Virus genome (UHGV): UHGV-1840329
Source: a virus
Reading direction: 5' to 3' (one strand)
Length of the DNA stretch: 10,323 nt
The notes beneath the pieces were generated by a model. The model ran no database searches. It worked only from the letters and a program-made list of their open reading frames with translations, and was not told the origin of the DNA. Positions 1,986 through 2,102 of this stretch are shown piece by piece (within the stretch, counting starts at the first letter, position 1; each line of letters begins with the position of its first letter). Position numbers and translations under genes: made by a program.

Positions 1986-2102
1986 GATTTACCTCTGAGG
2001 TAATTAAAAACCACATAAGACATGAAATCAATAGAGTTTATAATATTTTGTTACCTAACAGGTAATTATCGAGGCGTAAAAAAATGCGCTATCGCGCTGG
2101 TA
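1986..2102 (-). promoter_or_regulatory. Operator-flanked promoter region between P-like gene and nuclease gene
   Basis: Two perfect copies of TTACC-N5-GGTAA at 1989-2003 and 2051-2065, centres 62 bp apart. On the minus strand a TTGATT -35-like hexamer (plus coords 2026-2031) lies 27-32 bp from the distal operator centre, mirroring the pL-like promoter at 5084. A weak -10-like TTTAAT abuts the proximal operator, which also overlaps the RBS of the 1985 start. Confidence 0.45.
2078..2098 (-). terminator. Possible weak intrinsic terminator after P-like gene
   Basis: Minus-strand RNA would form a 4-bp GC stem (GCGC GAUA GCGC) followed by seven U residues, directly after the P-like stop at 2103. 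The stem is short, so strength is doubtful. Confidence 0.25.

Follow-up and report, generated by a model that had tools for sequence, protein, structure and literature searches.

The DNA analysed here, UHGV virus genome UHGV-1840329 (10,323 nucleotides, referred to below as the window), is an Escherichia coli Uetakevirus prophage of the epsilon15/phiV10/ZX5 group of podoviruses, and the element under study is the intergenic region at positions 1986–2102, here called P3, which separates a lambda P-like replication gene from a gene for a DUF1064 protein and carries two predicted operators of the prophage repressor Rep. The window is 100% identical to a prophage of E. coli Combat2C1 and shares 99.2% identity with phage vB_EcoP_ZX5 (ZX5), 97% with TL-2011b across the full query and 97% with phiV10, for which 66% of the query is covered. 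Its genes follow a lambda-like order (RecT and exonuclease, rep, cro-like, DnaT-like, P, DUF1064 and Ead/Ea22-like, as assigned with Pfam). The features of P3, its flanking genes, Rep and the pL-like module are as follows.

1641–1985, minus strand: DUF1064 gene, coding for a putative Holliday-junction resolvase, first gene of the unit that P3 would control (Pfam DUF1064; phrog_190 'Holliday junction resolvase', E 7e-43)
1989–2003: proximal predicted Rep operator TTACCTCTGAGGTAA, perfect, lying over the predicted transcription start (about 1996/1995) and the Shine–Dalgarno sequence GAGG (1995–1992)
2003–2008, minus strand: −10-like hexamer TTTAAT, 17 nt past the −35 element, its last T being the first base of the proximal operator
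2009–2016, minus strand: ATGTGGTT motif in the promoter spacer
2026–2031, minus strand: −35 element TTGATT, inside the conserved CTATTGA
2017–2044, plus strand: antisense promoter-like match AAGACA-16-TATAAT, agreeing with the consensus at 10 of 12 positions
2042–2050, minus strand: A/T tract CAAAATATT, situated between the distal operator and the −35 element
2051–2065: distal predicted Rep operator TTACCTAACAGGTAA, a perfect palindrome
2078–2097, minus strand: terminator-like element after the P-like gene, hairpin GCGC-GAUA-GCGC (2097–2086) followed by U7 (2084–2078)
2103–2879, minus strand: lambda P-like replication gene, last of the upstream unit (Pfam Phage_lambda_P, E 5e-56)
4408–4992, plus strand: Rep, the presumed operator-binding prophage repressor (full-length homologue of SPC32H Rep, PDB 5D50, E 3.5e-42, 43% identity)
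5050–5126, plus strand: pL-like paralogous module (operator, 19 nt, TTGACA, 17 nt, AATTAT, operator)

The paired operators and their pL-like counterpart

The operator motif is a 15-bp palindrome, TTACC-N5-GGTAA, of which the window holds five perfect copies, whereas 0.01 would be expected and none of 200 shuffled sequences contained five. Two of these copies lie in P3 (1989–2003 and 2051–2065), where the sequence-only reading had already placed two perfect operators between the P-like and DUF1064 genes, one lies in the OR-like region (4338–4352) and two in the OL-like region (5050–5064 and 5112–5126). With up to two mismatches allowed, 10 matches are found in the window against an expected 2.8, including those at 3953–3967, 4290–4304 and 4321–4335, and the OR-like region (4290–4352) has three operators.

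The centre-to-centre distance is 62 bp for both the P3 pair (1989/2051) and the OL-like pair (5050/5112), and the two modules align without gaps over the operator, CTATTGA, the spacer and the second operator. They share one layout: an operator, a 19-nt stretch that ends in CTA, then TTGA.., a further 17 nt, and a hexamer that shares its final T with the first base of the second operator. The −35 elements are correspondingly placed, TTGATT (2031–2026) lying 27–32 bp from the operator centre at 2058 and TTGACA (5084–5089) at the same distance from that at 5057. P3 is a paralogue of the pL-like module, and both the equal −35 offset and the identical geometry previously claimed for the two regions are borne out. 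A further claim, that the proximal operator overlaps the start and the ribosome-binding site of the downstream gene, holds in part: the ribosome-binding site (GAGG) is covered but the start codon is not, the operator ending 3 nt before the ATG (1985–1983).

The hairpin that follows the P-like gene has the form of an intrinsic terminator, with a GC-rich stem and a U-tract, although a weak one (four GC pairs, −7.4 kcal/mol, z −2.6, compared with −15 kcal/mol for the cro terminator). A rho-independent terminator is annotated at this position in the phiV10 record, a terminator scanner detects it in the Klebsiella orthologue, and the GCGC stem and the T7 run are invariant among relatives, with a variable loop. 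Partial read-through from upstream past this element is likely.

Conservation of the module among relatives

When viral contigs were searched for pairs of perfect operators with the 62-bp spacing, at least 120 loci carrying 169 modules were obtained, and in 167 of these dual-operator modules TTGA is found at a fixed offset and in one orientation only. The modules fall into two classes, a pL type and a 'third' type, the latter being that of P3. Modules of the pL type have TTGACA or TTGACT, 17 nt and a −10 element that is mostly AATTAT, AATCAT or GATTAT. Those of the third type have TTGA followed by two T or A residues, with a GCGC-loop-GCGC hairpin and T7 always ahead and a proximal operator holding the ribosome-binding site after; they retain the two operators, the CTATTGA sequence and a T..AAT hexamer that merges into TTACC, as well as the spacer motif ATGTGGTT in the form T.TGG.T, while the operator centres vary. 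The A/T tract of P3 is possibly an UP-element-like or bending tract; AAAATAT is kept in third-type modules, and those of the pL type have a T-tract at the same place.

Two samples were ascertained independently of the P3 operators, namely loci found through Rep and loci found through pL. Both P3 operators are perfect in 74 of the 77 Rep-ascertained loci, with one mismatch in the remaining three, and in 40 of the 41 loci found through pL. Across 55 aligned Rep-ascertained loci the diversity of the distal operator half-sites is 0; that of the half-sites and the terminator together is likewise 0, compared with 0.035–0.058 at third-codon positions, and the sense −35 element also shows a diversity of 0 in the E. 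coli lineage. Among representative genomes, those of Citrobacter, Klebsiella, Kluyvera, Pseudocitrobacter, Superficieibacter and Candidatus Erwinia dacicola also contain the P3 module, and modules of the pL type are present in Buttiauxella and Pseudescherichia. The module is conserved in at least eight enterobacterial genera beyond Escherichia. The two sites in 1986–2102 are, by their predicted binding, genuine and strongly conserved operators of the prophage repressor. That they could be a chance cluster of functionless palindromes, for which the AT-richness of this intergenic DNA is the only argument, has a negligible probability: next to the excess of perfect sites in the window, complete phage genomes contain 14–15 sites where 0.6 are expected, the half-sites have not diversified amid fast-evolving centres, and the module recurs across genera. 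Motif statistics and conservation together rule this explanation out.

The first gene downstream of the module is exchanged among lineages, being a DUF1064 gene, a gene for a RuvC-like resolvase or another gene; the RuvC-like gene replaces DUF1064 behind the same module in epsilon15, Tyrion and others. In epsilon15 and many IMG/VR loci the switch at the 1986 boundary falls within a few bases of the proximal operator, and the DUF1064 and RuvC-like proteins are both putative Holliday-junction resolvases. As judged from these comparisons, the boundary is a mosaic junction with apparent non-orthologous replacement behind the module. Because the module remains constant while the first gene changes, it can be described as a regulatory cassette at a mosaic junction.

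The same half-sites are present in all relatives found, which include phages of E. coli, Salmonella, Klebsiella, Enterobacter and Citrobacter. TTACC/GGTAA half-sites are also found near Rep proteins that are as little as 43% identical (window 4408–4992 compared with 33742–34335 of the relative), and since Rep proteins this distant keep the same half-sites, operator specificity seems not to diversify in the Rep family. Immunity specificity may instead reside in the pairing of Rep with its antirepressor.

A different behaviour was observed for the centre of the distal operator (2056–2060), which in the Rep-ascertained loci reaches a diversity of 0.48–0.67 at four positions, and for the 9 bp between this operator and the terminator (2066–2074), with a diversity of 0.2–0.5. 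In pairs of loci with three to five differences per approximately 840 flanking sites, 2.1 of the 14 sites of this patch differ, a pairwise divergence per site about ten times that of third-codon positions, although the flank-identity filter of the sample may exaggerate the contrast. The distal operator of pL is similarly variable (5043–5049 and 5055–5059), whereas the OR operators are not. Two candidate explanations for the patch were discarded: a hairpin between the outer flank and the operator centre, given the low mutual information and poor Watson–Crick fractions, and gene conversion from the pL to the P3 distal centre within a genome, the two being identical in one of 85 combinations against 0.5 expected.

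The sense promoter and competing readings

Taken together, region 1986–2102 is probably a Rep-caged sense promoter on the minus strand, serving a recombination/nin-like operon. Promoter activity and a start at about 1996/1995 are predicted from the sequence, and the earlier proposal of a repressor-controlled promoter directed into the DUF1064 gene is strengthened by the promoter anatomy, the paralogy with pL, the position after a terminator-like hairpin and the conservation of the module. The −35 element TTGATT matches TTGACA at four of six positions, and the −10 element TTTAAT, which is in the same register as AATTAT of pL, matches at five of six but has a T at position 2. In orthologues the −10 element is either TAAATT, 18 nt past the −35 element, or CAGTAT, at a distance of 17 nt, and a divergent subgroup has the canonical arrangement TTGAAA-17-CAGTAT. 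In the epsilon15 and Klebsiella orthologues the promoter scanner calls TTGAAA or TTGATA, 18 nt and TAAATT on the sense strand, and calls no promoter on the opposite strand of the P3 intergenic region. The coincidence of the last T of the −10 element with the first T of the operator is also seen at pL, in the cro-downstream module of relatives and ahead of the ash and anti-repressor-annotated genes of ZX5.

Several observations weigh against this interpretation. The A at −11 is usually the most critical base of a −10 element, and it is lacking throughout the E. coli lineage (TTTAAT, or TTAATT at 18 nt), where the scanner makes no call, the window included; the strength of P3 in this lineage is therefore uncertain. 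Moreover, a start at about 1996 leaves a leader of only 10–11 nt, bridging of 62 bp by a single Rep tetramer is deduced from the spacing alone, and the post-P terminator is so weak (a 4-bp stem of −7.4 kcal/mol) that the downstream genes may also receive read-through.

Under another explanation, the operators are real Rep sites but no useful sense promoter exists in the E. coli lineage, the bound repressor acting instead as a roadblock or insulator against leakage from the pR/replication unit past the weak terminator, in the manner of a mycobacteriophage stoperator, or the sites serving as loop anchors in the genome-wide Rep network. Besides the weakness of the terminator and the missing A at −11, which extends from the window to 55 variants of the E. 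coli lineage, this explanation is favoured by the existence in complete phages of other operators with no evident sigma-70 −35 element, such as the pair between a strong terminator and terS, and by stoperator-type blocks to elongation being a known mechanism (PMC9283540 and PMC6550527). On the other hand, without a promoter it is difficult to account for the invariant offset of TTGA, the conservation of the −10 region (diversity about 0) and the exact pL geometry. Some orthologues, moreover, have promoters that the scanner recognizes, and whereas stoperators are asymmetric and orientation-dependent, the sites here are paired palindromes. We thus regard this explanation as unlikely, though deserving of attention, and prefer a sense promoter, weak in the E. 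coli lineage, to both a roadblock and an antisense promoter.

The antisense possibility stems from the plus-strand TATAAT at 2039–2044, which is present as had been indicated and is preceded by AAGACA at a distance of 16 nt. If this match (2017–2044) were a functional promoter, transcription would start near 2051, inside the operator 2051–2065, and Rep would control an oop-like antisense RNA extending into the 3′ end of the P-like gene. No other sequence in the region matches sigma-70 better, the score of 10 of 12 positions being level with that of pL, and an operator overlaps its predicted start. Of 105 unique third-type modules, 47 have a called AAGACA-16-TAGAAT or TATAAT, mostly with TAGAAT, and all of these belong to the E. 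coli lineage. Nonetheless, the Salmonella, Klebsiella and Enterobacter orthologues examined lack the match, their −10 position being occupied by GCGCAT or AACACA and no −35 element being present, and it varies even in the E. coli lineage (TAGAAC, AAGAAT or TAGGAT); its −10 element has a mean diversity of about 0.08, near that of third-codon positions, compared with 0 for the sense −35 element. No plus-strand terminator was found after the match, an Rfam scan of 1800–2400 gave only a sub-threshold chance match, and no convincing or conserved small plus-strand open reading frame lies downstream. The combination of a conserved antisense promoter with an intrinsic terminator that would define an oop-like RNA is not seen here, and with its hexamers confined to one lineage this alternative is weak, its probability being low.

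A proposed Rep cage and the genome-wide operator network

The repressor itself has been studied structurally in its SPC32H homologue. According to PMC9638917, Rep is removed by an antirepressor and binds DNA as a tetramer, the subunits of each DNA-binding pair coming from different dimers; there and in PMC9986798, a single tetramer is described as sufficient for repression. The latter source further describes a looping-type tetramerization domain (the TetDloop fold, shared with Rco) and two pairs of middle dimerization domains, following the DNA-binding domains, that are approximately 100 Å apart, and states that the mechanism of repression 'has not been extensively characterized' (PMC9986798). 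In ZX5, overexpression of the repressor shut off lytic transcription, the transcripts of endolysin and holin falling by over 99.9%, in a study that maps no operators (PMC9782041).

On the basis of geometry and homology, we infer that Rep binds the P3 sites and that one tetramer bridges them. In a lysogen, a single tetramer with two DNA-binding units would occupy both operators, which would point to the same side of the helix since 62 bp corresponds to about six helical turns (approximately 5.9). The contour between the operators is about 210 Å, compared with the approximately 100 Å that separates the paired domains of the tetramer, and bridging would therefore bend the 47 bp of intervening promoter DNA and exclude RNA polymerase; A/T tracts could assist the required bending. 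The caged DNA would comprise the −35 element and the spacer, while the proximal site would cover the edge of the −10 element, the start site and the ribosome-binding site. Upon removal of Rep by a LexA-controlled antirepressor, or upon infection, P3 would open together with pL, pR and other units and would express the recombination/nin-like unit, whose last gene in the complete phage codes for a predicted transcription regulator and directly precedes the terminase genes. P3 would thereby free the DUF1064 unit from dependence on read-through from pR.

The unit extends past the left end of the window. In ZX5 it spans 16189–19538, its last gene coding for a phrog_536 'transcriptional regulator' and being followed by a strong terminator, operators and terS. 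No lambda N- or Q-type antiterminator was recognized among the proteins scanned. Genes of the window not yet located are the following.

285–923, minus strand: Ead/Ea22-like gene, in the same direction as DUF1064 (Pfam)
920–1579, minus strand: open reading frame with no assigned function, in the same direction as DUF1064
2851–3699: DnaT-like gene
4023–4253: cro-like gene

No peptidase S24 domain was found by Pfam in the Rep of the window, and no LexA box occurs inside the window. In ZX5, a perfect LexA box TACTGTATAAATATACAGT (2367–2385) lies beside a small ant-type gene (2089–2346) and near a Rep operator at 2423. This gene sits where ant does in SPC32H, and the operator is located between it and the tail-fibre gene. 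The LexA box and the ant-type gene are consistent with SOS induction through an antirepressor acting on a non-cleavable repressor.

The view of P3 as a third operator region added to a lambda plan does not survive comparison with complete genomes: the phage is of the epsilon15/phiV10 type, and P3 is one of about nine operator locations per genome. The complete ZX5 genome has 14 matches with at most one mismatch, against 0.6 expected, all intergenic according to the ZX5 gene table, and epsilon15 has 15. The ZX5 operators are distributed as listed.

OL: two operators
OR: two operators and a third with two mismatches
Downstream of cro: operator
P3: two operators
19625/19643: operator pair that follows a strong terminator and abuts the start codon of terS
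Upstream of the portal cluster, the tail-fibre gene, int, and the ash and anti-repressor-annotated genes: single operators

Outside the immunity region and P3, the ZX5 operators are at 978, 2043, 2423, 8026, 19625/19643 and 22756, and at the ash/anti-repressor site TTGCAA-17-TATATT is fused to the operator. Operators of epsilon15 are found at 12/30, 2932, 19896, 24704 and 26882, and lysis and tailspike units are among those preceded by an operator in ZX5 or epsilon15. With operators ahead of the terminase, portal, tail-fibre/tailspike, lysis, int and antirepressor units, the repressor would seem to govern a regulon spanning the genome and not just a two-operator immunity region.

The ATGTGGTT motif occurs just three times in ZX5 (2470, 16158 and 22815), each time on the sense strand and 33–45 nt past a Rep operator, and these copies precede the P3 unit, the tail-fibre gene and the portal cluster. 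In epsilon15, TGTGGTT is found in the same arrangement at 2992, 24755 and 35957, ahead of the portal cluster, the lysis cluster and P3, respectively, and homologous arrangements of the motif exist in epsilon15 and SPC32H. The motif may mark a promoter class, or a site for a regulator, that P3 has in common with late units.

A related module lies downstream of cro in the window (3908–3967, minus strand), directly after the cro terminator (4001–3982), and consists of an operator GTACCTCAAAGGTAA with one mismatch (3967–3953), TTGATC (3935–3930), 16 nt and CAAAAT (3913–3908). In seven relatives GGTTGATC and AAAAT are invariant, and in five of the seven the −10 element continues directly into TTACC, the remnant half of a degenerate proximal operator, in the manner of pL and P3; by this comparison, the window has lost the proximal site. 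Between this module and the DnaT-like gene, at 3662–3874, a phrog_1081 open reading frame (70 residues) replaces the gp40/p42-type gene of phiV10, which accounts for the 66% BLAST coverage obtained with phages of the phiV10 type.

These elements can be joined in a tentative picture, which we put forward as possible rather than probable. The lytic programme of Uetakevirus would be a chain of units, each made of a terminator and a Rep-caged promoter, with no N/Q-type antitermination, and every cage would be a one-tetramer micro-loop on operators exactly 62 bp apart. P3 would belong to a class of promoters, marked by ATGTGGTT in the spacer, that also includes late-gene promoters. The non-contacted centre of the distal operator, together with the flank outside it, would evolve about ten times faster than third-codon positions, driven either by diversifying selection that tunes the loop or the affinity or by a mutational hot spot at the palindrome when Rep is bound.

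Relation to known systems and significance

Part of this system has been described before. The GenBank record of epsilon15 (AY150271.2) carries the annotation 'protein_bind, repressor' at seven of its 15 motif matches, one of which (35906–35922), between the replication and resolvase genes, is the orthologue of the P3 distal operator and can be aligned in sequence with the module; the record marks one of the two P3 operators and no promoter. None of these operator sites is annotated in the records of phiV10, ZX5 and SPC32H. Epsilon15 and SPC32H (PDB 5D50 and 5D4Z) share with the window the genus, the operator half-sites and a homologous repressor, and the Rep/Ant switch of SPC32H has its counterpart in the LexA box beside the small ant-type gene of the near-identical ZX5. 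The 62-bp paired geometry, the paralogy with pL and the P3 promoter were not found in GenBank annotation or in citing papers, the primary SPC32H and epsilon15 literature being outside the scope of the search. The P3 operator is thus known at the annotation level for epsilon15, within a Rep family with solved structures, and P3 is an ordinary and expected part of a partly described system rather than a surprise.

The likeness to OL and OR of lambda and P22 consists in a palindromic operator of a helix-turn-helix repressor that overlaps early promoters, and in the lambda-like gene order. Lambda, however, has two regions, each with three neighbouring operators to which dimers bind cooperatively, and reaches the nin/Q region by N antitermination. 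In the phage of P3, a promoter is enclosed by paired operators at a distance of 62 bp, about nine locations are involved, and the tetrameric repressor is not cleaved but taken away by an antirepressor. The three operators approximately 20–24 bp apart of the lambda type are not found at P3, which has two, 62 bp apart. Other systems with distributed operators are those of P1 (C1 operators), 186 (CI at pB) and N15 (CB at repA). The stoperators of mycobacteriophages L5 and Bxb1 are likewise bound by one repressor at many genomic sites that affect units beyond the immunity region (PMC9283540 and PMC6550527). They are, on the other hand, asymmetric, bound by monomers and block elongation depending on orientation, while the Uetakevirus sites are dispersed in the same way (14 in ZX5 and 15 in epsilon15) but are perfect palindromes for a tetramer, often paired, and integrated with the −35 and −10 elements at P3 and pL. 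Closer in architecture are Rco of pLS20, with operators 75 bp apart, and looping of the LacI/GalR type, which similarly combine a tetramer, two DNA-binding units and two operators a few helical turns apart that flank or overlap a promoter; for Rep, looping at 62 bp is a proposal.

Prophages of the epsilon15/phiV10 type are common, the region being matched in 718 of 5,426 complete E. coli genomes, and the annotation of early regions is affected, since most records lack these sites. The strictly conserved operator pairs 62 bp apart provide a concrete DNA geometry with which to test an unusual tetrameric repressor. Direct gating of many units by the repressor, beyond pL and pR, would change models of both induction and superinfection immunity in these phages.

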